Source: an uncultured Methanosarcinales archaeon (GTDB lineage Archaea > Nanobdellota > Nanobdellia > Woesearchaeales > JAGVZT01). From it: DNA of 64,000 nt. The stretch spans positions 17,266-81,265 of the forward strand of contig CAYQPU010000001.1 of NCBI GenBank assembly GCA_964419615.1, given 5' to 3'. Position numbers and translations under genes: made by a program. A model generated the notes under the pieces. The model was not told the origin of the DNA. It was given only the letters and a program-made list of their open reading frames with translations, and searched no databases. Position 1 is the first letter of the stretch, and the number at the start of each line of letters is the position of its first letter. Below are positions 35,884 through 42,481 of the stretch, one piece after another.

Positions 35884-37041
35884 TTATAAGATATTATTTA
35901 ATTCTTCTACTGTTCTATCAACATGTTCTTTTTGTATTATTAATGGTGGTAGGAATCTAAGTACTGTTGATGATGCCGGAGCTGCTATTATTCCTTTTTC
36001 CTGAAGTTTTTTTAGGTATTCACTGCTTTTCTTTTTTAGATCTAGTCCTATCATTAGACCTGCTCCACGTACATCTCTTATCAGAGGAGAATCAAGATTG
36101 TTTAGTTCTGACATAAAGTAACTTCCAATTTCCTTACTATGACTTAATAGGTTGTTTTGCTCAATGTAATTGATTGTTGCAAGGCTTGCAGCACATACTA
36201 ATGGATTCCCTCCAAAAGTAGAGCTGTGAACACTCTTACCTACAGTTTCTGCAATTTCTTCAGTAGTGAGTGTTGCACTCATTGCAAGACCATTTGCTAT
36301 TCCTTTGGATAAACAGATTATATCTGGTTCTACATTGTAAAGTTCTGAAGCTGTCCAATGTCCTGTTCGAAATCCTGTTTGGACTTCATCAAAGATTAAT
36401 ACTGTTTCTGTGTCATTGCAGATGTCTCTAGCTGCTTTAAGGTATTGCTTTGTTGCAAGTTTTATTCCTGATTCTCCCTGGATTGGTTCAAGGATTAATG
36501 CGGCTGTATCTTTATTCACTGTTTCTTTTAATTCTTCCTCATCATTAAATCTGATTTGCTCAAAGCCAGGAATTAGTGGTAAAAATGGTTTTCTGTACTT
36601 AGGACTTGAAGTTGTTGCTGAGAGTGTAGCCAAAGTCTTTCCATGATAACCTAATTTTGCGGATATTATCTTTCTTCTTCCAGAATAGATCATTGAGAAT
36701 TTTATAGCTGCTTCAACTGCTTCTGCACCAGAGTTTCCAAAGTAGATTCTATTTAGATTCTTGGGTGTAATACTGATCAATTTTGCTGCTGCTTTTTCAC
36801 GGACTTTATTATGAAAACTCCAATGTATGTTTGAGATTTTGGATAGTTGATCTGTGATTGCGCTGTTTATAGCTTTACAGTTATGACCCAAAATACTAAC
36901 CCCAATGTTTGTCATTAAGTCAAGATATTTATTTCCCTTATCATCATATAGATAGACTCCGTTTCCTCTTGTGATGTTTAGTTCTCTAACTGGAAAGGTT
37001 GAGATCATTATTTTTTTATTATCTAAGTTTTCATTATTCAT
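35884..37041 (-). CDS. lysJ: [LysW]-aminoadipate semialdehyde / glutamate semialdehyde transaminase
   Basis: Class III PLP aminotransferase (EPIQGE, FDEVQTG, SKGIANG, HSSTFGGNP) in a LysW cluster. Confidence 0.88.
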   Translation of the reverse strand: MNNENLDNKKIMISTFPVRELNITRGNGVYLYDDKGNKYLDLMTNIGVSILGHNCKAINSAITDQLSKISNIHWSFHNKVREKAAAKLISITPKNLNRIYFGNSGAEAVEAAIKFSMIYSGRRKIISAKLGYHGKTLATLSATTSSPKYRKPFLPLIPGFEQIRFNDEEELKETVNKDTAALILEPIQGESGIKLATKQYLKAARDICNDTETVLIFDEVQTGFRTGHWTASELYNVEPDIICLSKGIANGLAMSATLTTEEIAETVGKSVHSSTFGGNPLVCAASLATINYIEQNNLLSHSKEIGSYFMSELNNLDSPLIRDVRGAGLMIGLDLKKKSSEYLKKLQEKGIIAAPASSTVLRFLPPLIIQKEHVDRTVEELNNIL

Positions 37042-37823
37042 TGTATCACAGTTCCTTTTTTTATATCTTTTATTGGGTGCTCAACTCTCCCATCTGTAAT
37101 GTAAACTGTTGTTTGACTATTTTCAAATAGTTTTCTAAGGGCAAGGATTTTGCGTTTTATTCTGCCTTCTACTTGTTGCTCGCGCTGCTCTAATTCATCA
37201 CAGTTTATTTCCTTTACAAGTGAATCAGGATCATTAAGATTATCTAATAAACCCTGAGCTTCTATTAATTGGATTATTTTGTCTGCAGGTATTGCTTGGT
37301 GAATTACATTTACTATATTATCATTTTCAGAGTTTATTGCAAACCCATTTTCATCAACTATGGGTACAGTAATTACCGGAGTGTATCCATTATCTAATAA
37401 TAGCCTGAGTAGGGCGGTGTTTACAGATTTTGGTTTACCTGAAAAATCTCTTACAATTTTTAGCTTGTTATTTTCTTTAATCCTAATCCCATTGTTTCTA
37501 CTTCCTTGAATTAATCTTCCATCTAAACCAGTTAAACCTATTGCGTTTATTCCATTTTGTTGACATAGTTCAACAATTCTTTTGTTTTTAAGGCCAGAGT
37601 ATGCCATCATCATTATATCAAGGGCATCCTTGTCTGAGAATACACTTGAATAGCCAGATACTGATTGAATTGTTTTTTTTGGTTTGTCTAATTGCTCAGC
37701 AATTTTATCTCTTAGAGCATTTGCTCCATGAACTATTATGAATTTTTCATCTAGTTCTGATAGATCCTTAATTATCCCTTCAATGTTAATATCTGCTCCT
37801 CCTCCAATCTTTACAATTATCAT
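37038..37823 (-). CDS. lysZ: [LysW]-aminoadipate / glutamate kinase
   Basis: IVKIGG, VHGAN, SVSGYSSV segment, NSENDN amino-acid-kinase fold. Confidence 0.9.
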   Translation of the reverse strand: MIIVKIGGGADINIEGIIKDLSELDEKFIIVHGANALRDKIAEQLDKPKKTIQSVSGYSSVFSDKDALDIMMMAYSGLKNKRIVELCQQNGINAIGLTGLDGRLIQGSRNNGIRIKENNKLKIVRDFSGKPKSVNTALLRLLLDNGYTPVITVPIVDENGFAINSENDNIVNVIHQAIPADKIIQLIEAQGLLDNLNDPDSLVKEINCDELEQREQQVEGRIKRKILALRKLFENSQTTVYITDGRVEHPIKDIKKGTVIQ

Positions 37824-38479
37824 TTAAAACACCTTGTTGTGTTGTTAGGTATAGGTTTTGATTCATTGTTAAATTTTTCTGAACATATTACCAATTTGTC
37901 AGTTTCACTAAGGTGCATTGTGAAATATTCTGATCTTTCATTAAAATTTGTTGATAAAAATATGTTTTTAGTTTGCATATTTACAATTACCAAATTTATT
38001 GCTTTAACAGTATTTGTTCTACATACAAGATAATCAATTCCTTTTTTAATTGCATTTAATAAAGAATCTGATCCACTTGATTGTTGTAGTTCAGAGTCTC
38101 GAAATCTTTTGATAAGATTAAATATTTTTTCAGCACCAATTCTTCCATGTTCCCTTATTCTAACTCCTCTTAATTCTCCATTAAACACAAAGACTAGTTC
38201 ATTATCAGTAAACGGCATGTTGTTTTCAATTACTATGTCTTTGTCTTCAAATGCACTTCTTGCATGAACAATTAGTAAGTTTGTTTTTTCAAATTTCTCA
38301 AAATCATCTTCCCAGATAGGATTAATGTTTTTGTAAAATTTCCAACCTCCTGAAAAAAAGGCACACCCCCAACCATGGCCTTGATACTCTTTGCTGTTTT
38401 GGCACAATTTAGCAAATTTTTCTAGATAGGGAGCTATTTCAAACTCAGTGTTTGATTTGATTATTAGTATTCTACACAT
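37820..38479 (-). CDS. Class II glutamine amidotransferase-like Ntn hydrolase (EgtC/YafJ-like)
   Basis: N-terminal M-C-R, GHGWG, HARSA, NNMPF, FNG; GRIGAE in place of the usual GxTDSE. Confidence 0.82.
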   Translation of the reverse strand: MCRILIIKSNTEFEIAPYLEKFAKLCQNSKEYQGHGWGCAFFSGGWKFYKNINPIWEDDFEKFEKTNLLIVHARSAFEDKDIVIENNMPFTDNELVFVFNGELRGVRIREHGRIGAEKIFNLIKRFRDSELQQSSGSDSLLNAIKKGIDYLVCRTNTVKAINLVIVNMQTKNIFLSTNFNERSEYFTMHLSETDKLVICSEKFNNESKPIPNNTTRCFK

Positions 38480-38495: not shown

Positions 38496-39527
38496 TTAAA
38501 CTGGATGAAGGCCTGGAAATTCAAGTCCAAGGGTTTCTTTGAAACCACTCATTAGATTCATTGACTGAACTGCTTGACCTGCTCCTCCTTTCATTAGATT
38601 GTCAATAGCGCCCATTACAACTAACCGGTTTGATTTTGGATCTACCTCAAATCCTACTTCACATATGTTTGTTCCTGCAAGTATTTTTGGTTCAGGGTAT
38701 CTATATACTCCAGTTCGCTTTTTTACTAGTCTTACAAAAGGTTCATCTTTGTAGGCTTGCCGATATGTATTCCAGATTTGTTTTTCATCAACTCCATCTT
38801 TTAAAAAAAGGTGAGATGTTGCCAAGATTCCTCTTATTAATTCAATTGAAGTTCCTGAGAAATGAACAGTTGGTTTGTGGCGAAAGTTTAGTTCTTGCTC
38901 TACTTCTGCTGTGTGTCTGTGACCTGTTGGCTTAAATGATCTTACAGCATGTGATCTTTCTGAGTGATGCGAGGCAAGGCTTGGCTTGTTTCCTGATGCC
39001 GAGCTTCCTACCTTTGCTTCAGTGATCACTGTTGATTCAACAAGGTTGTTTTTAAACAAAGGATATAGTCCTGTGATTGTTGCTGTGGCTAGACATCCTG
39101 TTCCTGCAACTAGATCTGCTTTTTTTATTTTTTCTCTATGTAGTTCAGCCATGCCATAAACAAATTTACTTAAGTATTCTGGATTAGGATGATCTTCACC
39201 ATACCACTTTTGATAGTCTTCTTTTTGTCTTAATCTAAAGTCTCCGCTAAGATCAATTATTTTTCCTGCTTTTTGCTGGAGCTCTGTTATTTTTTTCATT
39301 GCTAATCCATGGGGCAGTGCTAAAAATAATATGTCTGATTCTTCTAGATCATTTATTGTTGAAAATTTCAAGTTGTGGCCTCGAAGGTTTGGATGTACAT
39401 CATGGACAAATTTTCCTGCAAATCTTTCTGAGGTTACTTGTTTTAGTTTTACTTTTGGATGTCCTAAGAGAAGTCTTACAGCTTCTCCACCTATGTAACC
39501 GCTCGCTCCAACTACACTTACTTTCAT
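38496..39527 (-). CDS. lysY: [LysW]-aminoadipyl / glutamyl-phosphate reductase
   Basis: VGASGYIG, LALPHG, DLSGDFRL, GTGCLATA, GKV-like KVGSSASG, DNLMKGGAGQA. Confidence 0.92.
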   Translation of the reverse strand: MKVSVVGASGYIGGEAVRLLLGHPKVKLKQVTSERFAGKFVHDVHPNLRGHNLKFSTINDLEESDILFLALPHGLAMKKITELQQKAGKIIDLSGDFRLRQKEDYQKWYGEDHPNPEYLSKFVYGMAELHREKIKKADLVAGTGCLATATITGLYPLFKNNLVESTVITEAKVGSSASGNKPSLASHHSERSHAVRSFKPTGHRHTAEVEQELNFRHKPTVHFSGTSIELIRGILATSHLFLKDGVDEKQIWNTYRQAYKDEPFVRLVKKRTGVYRYPEPKILAGTNICEVGFEVDPKSNRLVVMGAIDNLMKGGAGQAVQSMNLMSGFKETLGLEFPGLHPV

Positions 39528-40366
39528 TTTTTTGCCTCCTTGATTAAATAATTAACAATTTTTTCTGGAATATTAACTCCAGTTGTATCAATGCTGTTTC
39601 TAAATTCCATTGTATGATTGATTTCATTTATTATCATTCCATTGTCTGTTTCAAATATATCCATTGCTAAGATTCCACCACCAACTGCTTTAGCAGCCTT
39701 TAAACAGATATTATTGATCTCTTCTGTTATTGGGCAGTTAGTTGCCGTGCCACCTCTTGCTGTGTTGGTTATCCAATGGTCTGAAGCTCTGTAAATTGCA
39801 CAAATTGTTTCATTTCCTACTACAAATGCCCTTATATCCCTTCCTGGTTTTTTTATGTATTCATTAATAAAAAAAACTGAGTGATGGTATGAACCAAGTA
39901 CTTGTTTGTGTTCAAGTACTGTTTCTGCAGCAGCTTCATTATCAATTTTTGACAAGAGTCTTCCCCAAGAACCTATTGCCGGTTTTAAGACTACTGGATA
40001 ACCAAATTCTTGTATTGCTTTCATTGCGCTTTCCCTTGAAAATGCAACTTTCACTCTTACCGCAGGTACTTTGTTTTTTTCCAAAGCAAGTGTTGTTAAT
40101 ATTTTATCTCCACATGTTCGTACTACTTTTGGTTTATTTACTATTTTTATATCATGATCATCTAGGATTTTTGTGATATGTCTTGATCTTGAAAAATTGA
40201 TGCTTCTATCTATTATTATATCTGTTTCAAAGACTGGTGTTTTTTCCAAACAAAAAGTTAAATCTCTATCATCAATTCTTACTAATTCAGCTTTGCTCTT
40301 CTTTATAGTCTCAAATAGTAATTTCTCTTCACGTCTAACCCTTGAGCATATGACTCCAATTTTCAT
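39524..40366 (-). CDS. lysX: Aminoadipate-LysW ligase (ATP-grasp)
   Basis: SRVRREEKLL, KPAIGSWGRL, WITNTARG, EINHTMEFRN. Confidence 0.92.
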   Translation of the reverse strand: MKIGVICSRVRREEKLLFETIKKSKAELVRIDDRDLTFCLEKTPVFETDIIIDRSINFSRSRHITKILDDHDIKIVNKPKVVRTCGDKILTTLALEKNKVPAVRVKVAFSRESAMKAIQEFGYPVVLKPAIGSWGRLLSKIDNEAAAETVLEHKQVLGSYHHSVFFINEYIKKPGRDIRAFVVGNETICAIYRASDHWITNTARGGTATNCPITEEINNICLKAAKAVGGGILAMDIFETDNGMIINEINHTMEFRNSIDTTGVNIPEKIVNYLIKEAKK

Positions 40367-41193
40367 TTTAGGCTCACCATGTAATCTATAATATCATCTG
40401 TTATTTTTTCATCTAGATGAGGGAAGTAAACACTAAATTCAGGTGTATAATCTACTTCTAACACTTGTATTCCTTTACGAGATTCAAGCATATCAACACA
40501 TACAAAATCTCCGTTTACTGCATTTTTTGCCTTTAAGGCCAATTTTTTGATTTTTGGAGTGACTGTGCATTTAGATATGCTTGCTCCTTTGTCTATATGA
40601 GTTATCCAATGTTTTGAATTACGGTAAATTGCATATACTTTGTTCCCTACAACAAATACCCTTATGTCTCTGCCGTGTTTCTCAATGTATTCTTGAACAT
40701 AGTATACTGAGTGGTGATATGTTCCAAGATTCTTTTTATGATAGACAATTGCTTCAGCTGCTTCTTTATCATTGATTTTTGCAAGAAGTTTACCCCAAGA
40801 GCCAATGGCTGGTTTTAGTATGACTGGGTAACCCATTTCCTCGATTATATCAAGTGCTTTTTCTGGTGTGAAGGCTATTTGTACTTTTGGTGTTGGAATT
40901 TTGTTCATGATTAAGGCTTCTGTAACTGAGAACTTGCTGCCGCAGATTTGAGCAGTTCTACCTGAGTTTACTGTTTTTACTCCAAAACTGTTTAGAATAT
41001 TAAGTGCATACATTGCTGTTAAATGATTCATGCATCTTTCTAGAACAATATCATGATCAAATCCATTTTTTCCTATGTCAAATAGTAGATCTTGCACTTT
41101 AATTAAGTCTAGTTCAATGCCTTTTTTATTAGCTGCAGCTATTAGAAGCTTTTCATCTTTTCTAATTCGCTCATATAGCATTCCAATTTTCAT
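40363..41193 (-). CDS. Second, divergent LysX/ArgX-like ATP-grasp ligase
   Basis: ERIRKDEKLL, KPAIGSWGKL, but WITHIDKG and EVDYTPEF. Confidence 0.82.
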   Translation of the reverse strand: MKIGMLYERIRKDEKLLIAAANKKGIELDLIKVQDLLFDIGKNGFDHDIVLERCMNHLTAMYALNILNSFGVKTVNSGRTAQICGSKFSVTEALIMNKIPTPKVQIAFTPEKALDIIEEMGYPVILKPAIGSWGKLLAKINDKEAAEAIVYHKKNLGTYHHSVYYVQEYIEKHGRDIRVFVVGNKVYAIYRNSKHWITHIDKGASISKCTVTPKIKKLALKAKNAVNGDFVCVDMLESRKGIQVLEVDYTPEFSVYFPHLDEKITDDIIDYMVSLK

Positions 41194-42323
41194 CGATATA
41201 CACCCGGTAATTGTACACTTGGATTAACTTCTCTAATTATTCTCACAATCTGTGAATCTCCTAATACATTGCTATCTCTATTTTTTATTAAACTAATTAC
41301 CTCACTAAAAAATTCTTCTGGAAGCTCTATTCCCATCAGATCCAGCTTATATTGTAGAGCTGGCTTACTTACAAATTTATCAATTATAATTTCTCTTTGG
41401 CCACCTACCAAATCAGTAAACCCATTTTCATAATGGTCAGGACTTGATAAGACTGCTGACACGTGTAATCCTGCATTATGAGTAAATGCATAACCCCCTA
41501 CAAAGGGTTCCTGCTCTGGTATTAAAATTGCAGAATATTTTTCCACAATAGAAGATAATTCTTGAATTACATCAAAATTCCATTCATTTGTAACATTGAA
41601 ATCATGTTTTAAAAGAGTACACACACTTGCAAGTGAAGCTATTCCTGTTCTTTCACCTAGTCCATTAACTGTTACATCAATTACACTTGCTCCAGCTCTG
41701 TATGCTGCAATTGAGTTTGCAGTCGCCATTCCTTTGTCATTATGACAATGTACATGAAGATCTACATCTAGTTCTTGTGATAGTCTTAAAACATAGTCAT
41801 ACATTTGCCAAGGTAGCATACAGCCTGCTGTATCAGCAATACTGATTCTGTCTGCTCCAGCTTGCACAGCAGCTCTTGCTACTCTTACAACTCGGTCAAA
41901 ATCACTTCTAACAGTGTCTTCAGGTGTGTATCGAACTTTTAATCCATATTGTTTTGCATGTTTTATTGTATCAGTTATGATTCTTGTTGCATCTTCTTCA
42001 GATTTTCGATACATCTCTTCCATTCTCTTATCTTTAAGACTGTAAAAAATTCCAACCCAGTCTGCTCCAAATTGATGGGCATAGTCTATGTCAGAAGACA
42101 CAGCCATACAGTGAACTAAGAATTCGGCTCTAAGATCAAGCATGCAGATTTTCTCAACAGCTTTTCTAATACTTGGACTAACTGCTGGGTGACCTACTTC
42201 AATTATTTCAGCACCAAATTCATCAAGAAGCTTTGCAATTTCTATTTTTTCATTTACTGTAAAGCTTACATATGGTGTTTGTTCACCTTCTCTTAGTGTA
42301 CTGTCCAATATGGCAATACTCAT
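41190..42323 (-). CDS. Homocitrate synthase (DRE-TIM metallolyase)
   Basis: LDSTLREGEQ, HVHCHND, GLGERTG, THNAGLH; start moved to ATG 42323, which overlaps the lysW stop. Confidence 0.85.
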   Translation of the reverse strand: MSIAILDSTLREGEQTPYVSFTVNEKIEIAKLLDEFGAEIIEVGHPAVSPSIRKAVEKICMLDLRAEFLVHCMAVSSDIDYAHQFGADWVGIFYSLKDKRMEEMYRKSEEDATRIITDTIKHAKQYGLKVRYTPEDTVRSDFDRVVRVARAAVQAGADRISIADTAGCMLPWQMYDYVLRLSQELDVDLHVHCHNDKGMATANSIAAYRAGASVIDVTVNGLGERTGIASLASVCTLLKHDFNVTNEWNFDVIQELSSIVEKYSAILIPEQEPFVGGYAFTHNAGLHVSAVLSSPDHYENGFTDLVGGQREIIIDKFVSKPALQYKLDLMGIELPEEFFSEVISLIKNRDSNVLGDSQIVRIIREVNPSVQLPGVYR

Positions 42324-42481
42324 TGACCCCAATCCTCTTCAGCCTCAGGAGCAAGTTCTAATGCTAAAGGATCCAAGGCTCTTACTTCTAGTTCAGCTCC
42401 ACAATCCCCACAGTTTACAACTTCTCCCACTTCAACTTCTCCGATTTTAATATTTGCTCCACATTCTGGACAATCTACCAT
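42320..42481 (-). CDS. lysW: Amino-group carrier protein LysW (53 aa) ending EEDWGQ
   Basis: Not in track. MVDCPECGANIKIGEVEVGEVVNCGDCGAELEVRALDPLALELAPEAEEDWGQ; two CxxC; GGAGGT site. Confidence 0.95.
   Translation of the reverse strand: MVDCPECGANIKIGEVEVGEVVNCGDCGAELEVRALDPLALELAPEAEEDWGQ

Follow-up and report, generated by a model that had tools for sequence, protein, structure and literature searches.

How can an amino-group carrier protein work if it lacks the residue that holds its cargo? This question is raised by the lysW gene (positions 42320..42481, minus strand) in a 64,000-nucleotide stretch of DNA from an uncultured archaeon of the order Woesearchaeales. (We refer to this whole stretch as the window.) From work in Thermus and Sulfolobus, the cargo of LysW is linked to the gamma-carboxyl group of its C-terminal glutamate. 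But the LysW encoded in the window ends in EAEEDWGQ, followed by the stop codon TGA, so its last residue is a glutamine (Gln53). Because glutamine has no free gamma-carboxyl group, this LysW must be deamidated, or else it must be used differently.

The lysW operon also encodes a stand-alone Ntn (N-terminal nucleophile) hydrolase with a predicted class-II glutamine amidotransferase fold (37820..38479, minus strand; 219 amino acids). We think it reasonably probable that this enzyme replaces LysK, the M20 metallopeptidase of the canonical pathway. That is, the hydrolase would release the product from LysW, and it would deamidate Gln53 by the same gamma-glutamyl-amide chemistry. We therefore describe it as a putative LysW gamma-glutamyl-amide hydrolase.

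The terminal glutamine of LysW

The window's lysW encodes 53 amino acids, with a zinc ribbon and an acidic tail that runs to EDWGQ. The protein matches PF21344 (65.1 bits; the cut-off is 27) and TIGR01206 (76.3 bits; the cut-off is 53.2), and it scores 55.1 against the archaeal domain model NF041070, which is under that model's cut-off of 75. In an alignment of 35 sequences, the zinc-ribbon cysteines (C4, C7, C24, and C27) are invariant, as are E49, D50, W51, and G52 of the tail (35/35). What the encoded protein lacks is the C-terminal glutamate, whose gamma-carboxyl accepts the substrate. This is the only LysW in the genome (1.48 Mb and 99% complete).

An earlier note on this DNA had read the final codons as GAG GAT TGG GGT CAA TGA, and the translation of the window agrees. 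The CAA codon for Gln53 is at 42323..42325 (minus strand, with its C at 42325), where a canonical LysW would have GAA or GAG for glutamate. CAA is one base away from GAA, and the same note had allowed for a G-to-C sequencing error. However, we found the exact LysW protein on 15 contigs, and all 10 of the contigs that we read, which are from different ENA, JGI, and Logan samples, have the identical 162-nt lysW gene, with 0 nucleotide differences and with CAA TGA at its end. A sequencing error is excluded by these ten separate assemblies and by the EDWGQ ends in at least 117 other species (see below). The rest of the window's operon is intact as well, and we give next to no credence to an error of sequencing or assembly or to lysW being a dead gene. 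The note had also mentioned Q-ended LysW proteins in other genomes and had suggested that the variant might not be unique, which proved to be correct. The EDWGQ end is found in three further LysW relatives (69-74% identity) and far beyond them.

We scanned one genome per species for DNA that encodes AP-x3-EDWGQ followed by a stop codon. (The sample consists of carriers with this particular tail.) This gave at least 119 loci, of which at least 117 are true LysW genes. Going by the titles of the records, Q-ended LysW is found in Gammaproteobacteria (many of them Arenicellales), Acidobacteriota, Ignavibacteria/Melioribacteraceae, Calditrichia, Gemmatimonadota, and Phycisphaerae, and also in candidate-phyla-radiation bacteria and in archaea. 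A metagenome scan that permitted either E or Q at the last codon found true LysW genes that end in E in 112 cases and in Q in 7. Q-ended LysW is a minority form, yet it is widespread. We did not find any paper on Q-ended LysW or on an Ntn hydrolase in LysW operons, in a search that left out most subscription journals. The pathway itself is a known one, and this form of it is new relative to the literature.

An Ntn hydrolase in LysW operons

We considered a locus to be informative if LysY and LysZ were both visible. A homologue of the window's hydrolase is present in 65 of 67 informative Q-ended loci, as compared to 11 of 51 informative E-ended loci. Another 10 genomes with Q have a locus that is cut or uninformative, and 8 of these carry the hydrolase elsewhere in the genome. 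Of the Q genomes or loci, 77 allowed a judgment, and 2 of these lack the hydrolase. One is a cut contig of 4.4 kb, for which a sister genome carries LysJ-hydrolase on a different contig. The other is an orphan LysW in a genome from the Actinomycetes (G005, see below).

The hydrolase does not depend on the glutamine, though. Operons with the hydrolase (hydrolase-type operons) are mostly E-ended: there are 11 with E vs. 3 with Q in the metagenome sample, which was blind to the terminus, and 7 with E vs. 1 with Q among those that we sampled from homologues of the hydrolase (four of these E rows are near-identical and Desulfobacterales-like). In E-type and Q-type rows alike, there is little or no variation at Cys2, Arg74, and Asn100-Gly101 of the hydrolase or at 13 other positions. 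In a tree of LysY proteins from 136 loci (built with FastTree, with local supports only, and with Q rows over-sampled), we see at least 10 changes between E and Q among the hydrolase-type rows, and Q is absent from the M20-type clades.

The relatives of the window's genome give a similar picture. One relative from the same genus (G016) has the same operon, including the hydrolase, yet its LysW ends in EDWGE (GAA TGA). LysW is also E-ended in the family members G017, G021, and G022, and G021 has a hydrolase match and a partial M20 match. In the window's lineage, the hydrolase is present in 4 of 5 relatives that have LysW and in 0 of 26 that do not. Across the window's order, the LysW pattern was found in 7 of 61 genomes; one of these is a chance match, which leaves 6 true LysW genes. 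(The LysW pathway is rare in this order of small-genome archaea and is concentrated in the window's own family. Also, the NCBI title of one genome, G015, names Methanosarcinales; it groups with the window's own phylum.) In a sample of 200 genomes from the phylum, all five of the further genomes with LysW have the hydrolase 3-7 kb from lysW, and three of these are E-ended and two are Q-ended. Since most hydrolase-type operons are E-ended, and since G016 has EDWGE in the same operon, the glutamine is not the reason for the hydrolase's presence. We rejected the idea that it exists only for Q.

If the hydrolase does not exist for the glutamine, what else might it do? LysK (of the ArgE/DapE family; TIGR01902 and NF003367) hydrolyzes the gamma-glutamyl isopeptide of lysine or ornithine, which regenerates LysW-Glu. 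This is the same reaction that we propose for the hydrolase. The two proteins are not homologous (LysK is a di-metal peptidase and the hydrolase is a cysteine N-terminal nucleophile enzyme), and they are mutually exclusive in loci: an M20 gene shares the locus in 0 of 76 cases with the hydrolase vs. 14 of 42 without it (Fisher p = 1e-7, with kin that are not independent). A domain search of the window's lysW operon found no M20 (LysK-type) gene. Similarly, scores over the cut-off of TIGR01902 are seen in 4 of 14 control genomes vs. 0 of 11 hydrolase-type genomes (one of which is the window's). Four genomes (G015, G126, G168, and G269) have no match to TIGR01902 at E <= 1e-5, and G050 has no match to PF01546; the completeness of some of these hydrolase-type genomes is not stated. 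We would not expect LysK to act on a plain amide such as that of glutamine, unlike an enzyme that recognizes the acyl side.

The best LysK scores in the window's genome are 95.7 bits for TIGR01902 (the cut-off is 163.1) and 98.6 for NF003367 (the cut-off is 363), both under. This genome has two M20 genes, and neither of them tracks LysW among the relatives. One is next to serS and is also present in relatives without LysW, which weakens it as a candidate for LysK. The other is between argH and carA and is discussed in the next section.

The sequence of the hydrolase begins with Met-Cys. Cys2 is nearly invariant in our alignment (the sole gap is in a truncated row), and Arg74 and Asn100-Gly101, the oxyanion Asn-Gly motif, are invariant. 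The matches to PF13230 and PF13522 are weak, at 20.3 and 20.6 bits, which is under the gathering scores of 23 and 27, respectively, and by its sequence the hydrolase is a divergent family of its own. There are over 3,100 homologues, of about 211 amino acids and with 50-58% identity, and every context that we examined is a LysW operon. The usual order is LysY-hydrolase-LysZ-LysJ, but the hydrolase may also be found after LysJ or upstream of lysW.

An AlphaFold2 model of the hydrolase, from an alignment with 30 rows, has high confidence (pLDDT 95.7, pTM 0.92). Using Foldseek, the best solved matches to this model are structures of EgtC (4zfj, 4zfk, and 4zfl; TM 0.70-0.76, E = 5e-11), followed by the glutaminase domains of PurF and GlmS, all with a probability of 1.00. 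The model has the four-layer Ntn fold. A profile search of PDB sequences with the hydrolase also found EgtC, along with 3mdn. EgtC, from the ergothioneine pathway, is likewise a stand-alone protein with a class-II glutamine amidotransferase fold, with a cysteine right after the methionine and with H-x-R-S-A and F/H-N-G motifs that align to the hydrolase. EgtC hydrolyzes a gamma-glutamyl amide, with a bulky derivative of an amino acid as the leaving group, and according to the titles of its entries, it was also crystallized with glutamine. Nevertheless, the hydrolase is not an orthologue of EgtC: they are just 16-17% identical, and TIGR03442, which is its best match in NCBIfam, gives 30.1 bits vs. 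a cut-off of 218.65. There are no ergothioneine genes near the window's hydrolase, and the donor that we propose is the end of a protein instead of a free glutamyl compound.

We also predicted the structure of the hydrolase together with LysW. The ipSAE score is 0.64 (0.73, 0.58, and 0.64 in separate runs), while the best control reached 0.04. (Among solved complexes, 58 of 80 attain this mark, as do 2 of 110 mismatched pairs; these numbers are only approximate here, as we used our own alignments.) At least 91% of the contacts are common to the runs, and the pLDDT of the partner is at least 80. In the predicted interface, residues 44-53 of LysW lie against residues 1-2, 74-78, 99-109, and 114-119 of the hydrolase, which include the invariant residues. 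Trp51 of LysW is buried and residue 53 touches residues 101-102 of the hydrolase. Thus, the tail of LysW is predicted to bind in the active site around Cys2. We are not aware of a comparable solved complex for the model to have memorized.

Proposed mechanism and alternatives

We propose that LysW is made with a C-terminal glutamine and that the operon's EgtC-like hydrolase would convert this to a glutamate that is competent for ligation. The hydrolase would bind the EDWG-E/Q tail, and Cys2 would attack the gamma-carbonyl of the last residue. This would expel an amine and leave a LysW-gamma-glutamyl thioester on Cys2, and hydrolysis of the thioester would give LysW-Glu. At the close of a cycle, the expelled amine would be lysine or ornithine, and it would be ammonia if the substrate is newly made LysW. 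We infer both catalytic activities from the observed sequences and their distribution, the computed fold, and the predicted docking.

If the enzyme that releases the product recognizes the acyl (carrier) side of the bond, and not the leaving group, then a change from Glu to Gln would be harmless wherever the hydrolase is present, and such changes in lysW could thus have arisen many times. Release and deamidation by the same hydrolase would explain the confinement of Q to hydrolase operons and the frequent flips between E and Q, and also why E-ended operons retain the enzyme and lack LysK. Product release is more likely to be the main task of the hydrolase, and the glutamine would be a variant that is tolerated, not a pro-form that is regulated. 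As for Gln53 itself, the co-occurrence of Q with the hydrolase and the predicted docking of the tail make deamidation by the hydrolase its most likely fate. The earlier note had proposed that LysW is an inactive precursor that needs deamidation, plausibly by the co-encoded Ntn hydrolase, and had asked whether Q in LysW C-termini is correlated with class-II glutamine amidotransferase neighbors. The correlation is there, and together with the docked tail it agrees with the proposed deamidation; the part of the proposal that does not hold up is that the hydrolase would be present because of the glutamine.

Several points weigh against our proposal that the hydrolase replaces LysK. We know of no enzymology for any member of this hydrolase family. 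Some of the genomes in the co-occurrence counts given above are related to each other, and we used a Q-specific pattern to draw the Q sample. Also, a metagenome-assembled genome from the Actinomycetes (G005) has two orphan genes for Q-ended LysW, one of them frameshifted, and a profile search of this genome found no homologue of the hydrolase. (In G005, at L278 4847-7909 and L279, LysX, LysY, LysZ, and LysJ are not near the orphan EDWGQ genes. The intact copy has among its neighbors a DJ-1/PfpI-family protein and a Cys-Ntn amidase of the choloylglycine hydrolase family. G005 may use its Q-ended carrier differently.) Generic M20 enzymes are retained by most of the bacteria that have hydrolase-type operons, so a LysK function may still be present. 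And in the window's genome, the M20 gene between argH and carA (L005 1327-2445, contig C45) scores 96-99 bits against LysK models, which is below their cut-offs, and the release of ornithine or lysine might still be its role here.

However, a search of 30 relatives, among them the LysW-bearing G016 (from the same genus) and G017 (from the same family), did not find this argH/carA gene; of 31 related genomes, the window's own (G000) is the only one in which we found it. This weakens it as the family's LysK. (The gene may be a recent acquisition, or its contig may be foreign to the genome, for which contamination is estimated at 2.3%.)

With these caveats in mind, we considered other explanations for the glutamine and the hydrolase. 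The hydrolase might deamidate LysW-Gln just once per molecule, with an M20 enzyme that is encoded elsewhere, perhaps by the argH/carA gene, releasing the product. This would account for the near-confinement of Q to hydrolase operons and for the docking of the tail in the predicted active site, and the argH/carA gene does combine an arginine context with weak similarity to LysK. But it leaves unexplained why the hydrolase is intact in the more numerous E-ended operons, and in the E-ended relative from the same genus, and why the hydrolase and M20 are never found in one locus. Furthermore, several genomes with LysW and the hydrolase lack any M20 or LysK-like gene, and the argH-linked M20 gene was found in none of the 30 relatives, including those that have LysW. 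We consider this explanation to be unlikely, but less so than the ones that follow. One of these is that Gln53 is not deamidated first. For example, LysX could load the alpha-carboxylate of the last residue, as RimK-family ligases are known to extend alpha-carboxylates. Or, the hydrolase could transamidate the LysW gamma-glutamyl thioester to aminoadipate or glutamate, given that amines can intercept the acyl-enzymes of Ntn hydrolases such as gamma-glutamyl transpeptidase. Either way, an exchange of E and Q is seen among close relatives with LysX proteins that are 73-78% identical, so a different ligation chemistry is unlikely. Also, LysX is kept in every hydrolase-type operon, and transfer from an encoded glutamine could be used only once per carrier molecule. 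Overall, we doubt strongly that Gln53 escapes deamidation.

It is slightly harder still to credit that the substrate of the hydrolase is some small molecule in free form (such as glutamine or another gamma-glutamyl compound) and that the enzyme is unconnected to the tail of LysW, with Q being neutral for some other reason, such as a general amidase. The weak matches to glutamine amidotransferase domains, and the fact that EgtC acts on a small molecule, would fit. The fixed position of the hydrolase inside LysW operons across many phyla, the tight restriction of Q to hydrolase operons, and a predicted complex with the tail in the active site that scores far above the controls all argue for a role with LysW instead. 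Finally, we can imagine that the alpha-amino group of aminoadipate or glutamate intercepts the Cys2 thioester, so that the carrier is reloaded without ATP and the glutamine serves as a pre-activated first charge. In a milder version, Gln53 would be there by design, as a pro-form through which the activation of LysW is tied to expression of the hydrolase. These ideas are speculative, and we rate them as the least probable of the possibilities in this section.

Returning to our proposal that one hydrolase both releases the product and deamidates LysW, a similar pairing of activities is known from another system. Dop removes Pup from its substrates, and it also deamidates Pup where the encoded Pup has a glutamine (PMC8599861). 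Like Dop of Actinobacteria, the hydrolase would be a single enzyme for removing a conjugate and for deamidating a glutamine, but this is a functional analogy only. Dop is related to glutamine synthetase and requires a nucleotide, and the role of Pup is to mark proteins for degradation, while that of LysW is to carry an intermediate of biosynthesis.

The terminal glutamate of LysW has been treated as a defining functional residue of amino-group carrier proteins, and in studied systems the cargo is attached to it (PMC12998189), yet at least 117 species encode a glutamine instead. In the Q-type operons, we propose that a metal enzyme, LysK, was replaced by an unrelated cysteine hydrolase. If the hydrolase does have both roles, then the final step in the carrier-mediated synthesis of lysine or arginine was solved a second time, by convergence, and the system is a biosynthetic counterpart to the logic of Pup and Dop. 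Pathway reconstructions would need to be corrected, as such genomes would otherwise be scored as lacking LysK and having a dead carrier. It would also provide a function for over 3,000 proteins that are annotated only as "glutamine amidotransferase."

The operon around lysW and related loci

The genes of the window's operon are all on the minus strand, in the order lysW, a homocitrate-synthase-like gene, two ATP-grasp ligases of the LysX/ArgX family, LysY, the hydrolase, LysZ, and LysJ. So, the genes expected for a LysW pathway (LysX, LysZ, LysY, and LysJ) are all present. In this respect the operon resembles the canonical LysW/ArgW pathway of Thermus thermophilus, Sulfolobus, and Thermococcus kodakarensis (LysW, LysX/ArgX, LysZ, LysY, LysJ, and LysK): they share a zinc-ribbon carrier with an EDWG tail, and the genes for the ligase, the kinase, the reductase, and the aminotransferase are in one operon. 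The differences are that the last residue of the carrier is glutamine instead of glutamate, that no LysK reaches its family's cut-off, and that an unrelated Cys-Ntn hydrolase lies between lysY and lysZ.

The homocitrate-synthase-like gene (41190..42323; 377 amino acids) matches PF00682 and PF22617, and its score for TIGR02146 is 368 bits, under the cut-off of 413. The stop codon of lysW overlaps the ATG of this gene (as ATGA, within 42320-42332), which suggests that the two genes are translationally coupled. (A list of open reading frames gives a TTG start for this gene at 42332, 9 nt upstream, and the gene calls for identical contigs use the ATG, which gives the 377 amino acids.)

Both of the ATP-grasp ligases match TIGR02144. 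The first (40363..41193) also matches PF22626 and PF08443, and its 271.6 bits are slightly under the cut-off of 275.6; the second (39524..40366) scores 327.9 bits, which is over it. The LysY/ArgC-type semialdehyde dehydrogenase (38496..39527) matches PF01118 and PF22698, the LysZ/ArgB-type amino-acid kinase (37038..37823) matches PF00696, and the LysJ/ArgD-type class-III aminotransferase (35884..37041) matches PF00202 with 356 bits.

The median identity of LysZ to the window's LysZ is 58% in hydrolase-type operons vs. 35% in other operons. For LysY, the difference between the two types of operons is far smaller. From this contrast in sequence identity, LysZ may have co-diverged with the type of operon.

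Two groups of loci have other arrangements. In Calditrichia (L026, L032, and L254), a second ATP-grasp ligase occupies the position between LysY and LysZ, and the hydrolase follows LysJ. A distinct subfamily of LysW, which has a second zinc knuckle with R/K-L-V-V after it and also a longer linker, is found in candidate-phyla-radiation genomes and in metagenome-assembled genomes that are labeled as "Gammaproteobacteria" (L012, L017, L037, L038, L050, L063, L072, L079, L109, L125, L205, and L240). The order in these loci is LysW-LysX-LysY, an HMGL-like gene (22-31% identity to the homocitrate-synthase-like protein), and then LysZ-LysJ-hydrolase, so that the hydrolase comes last.

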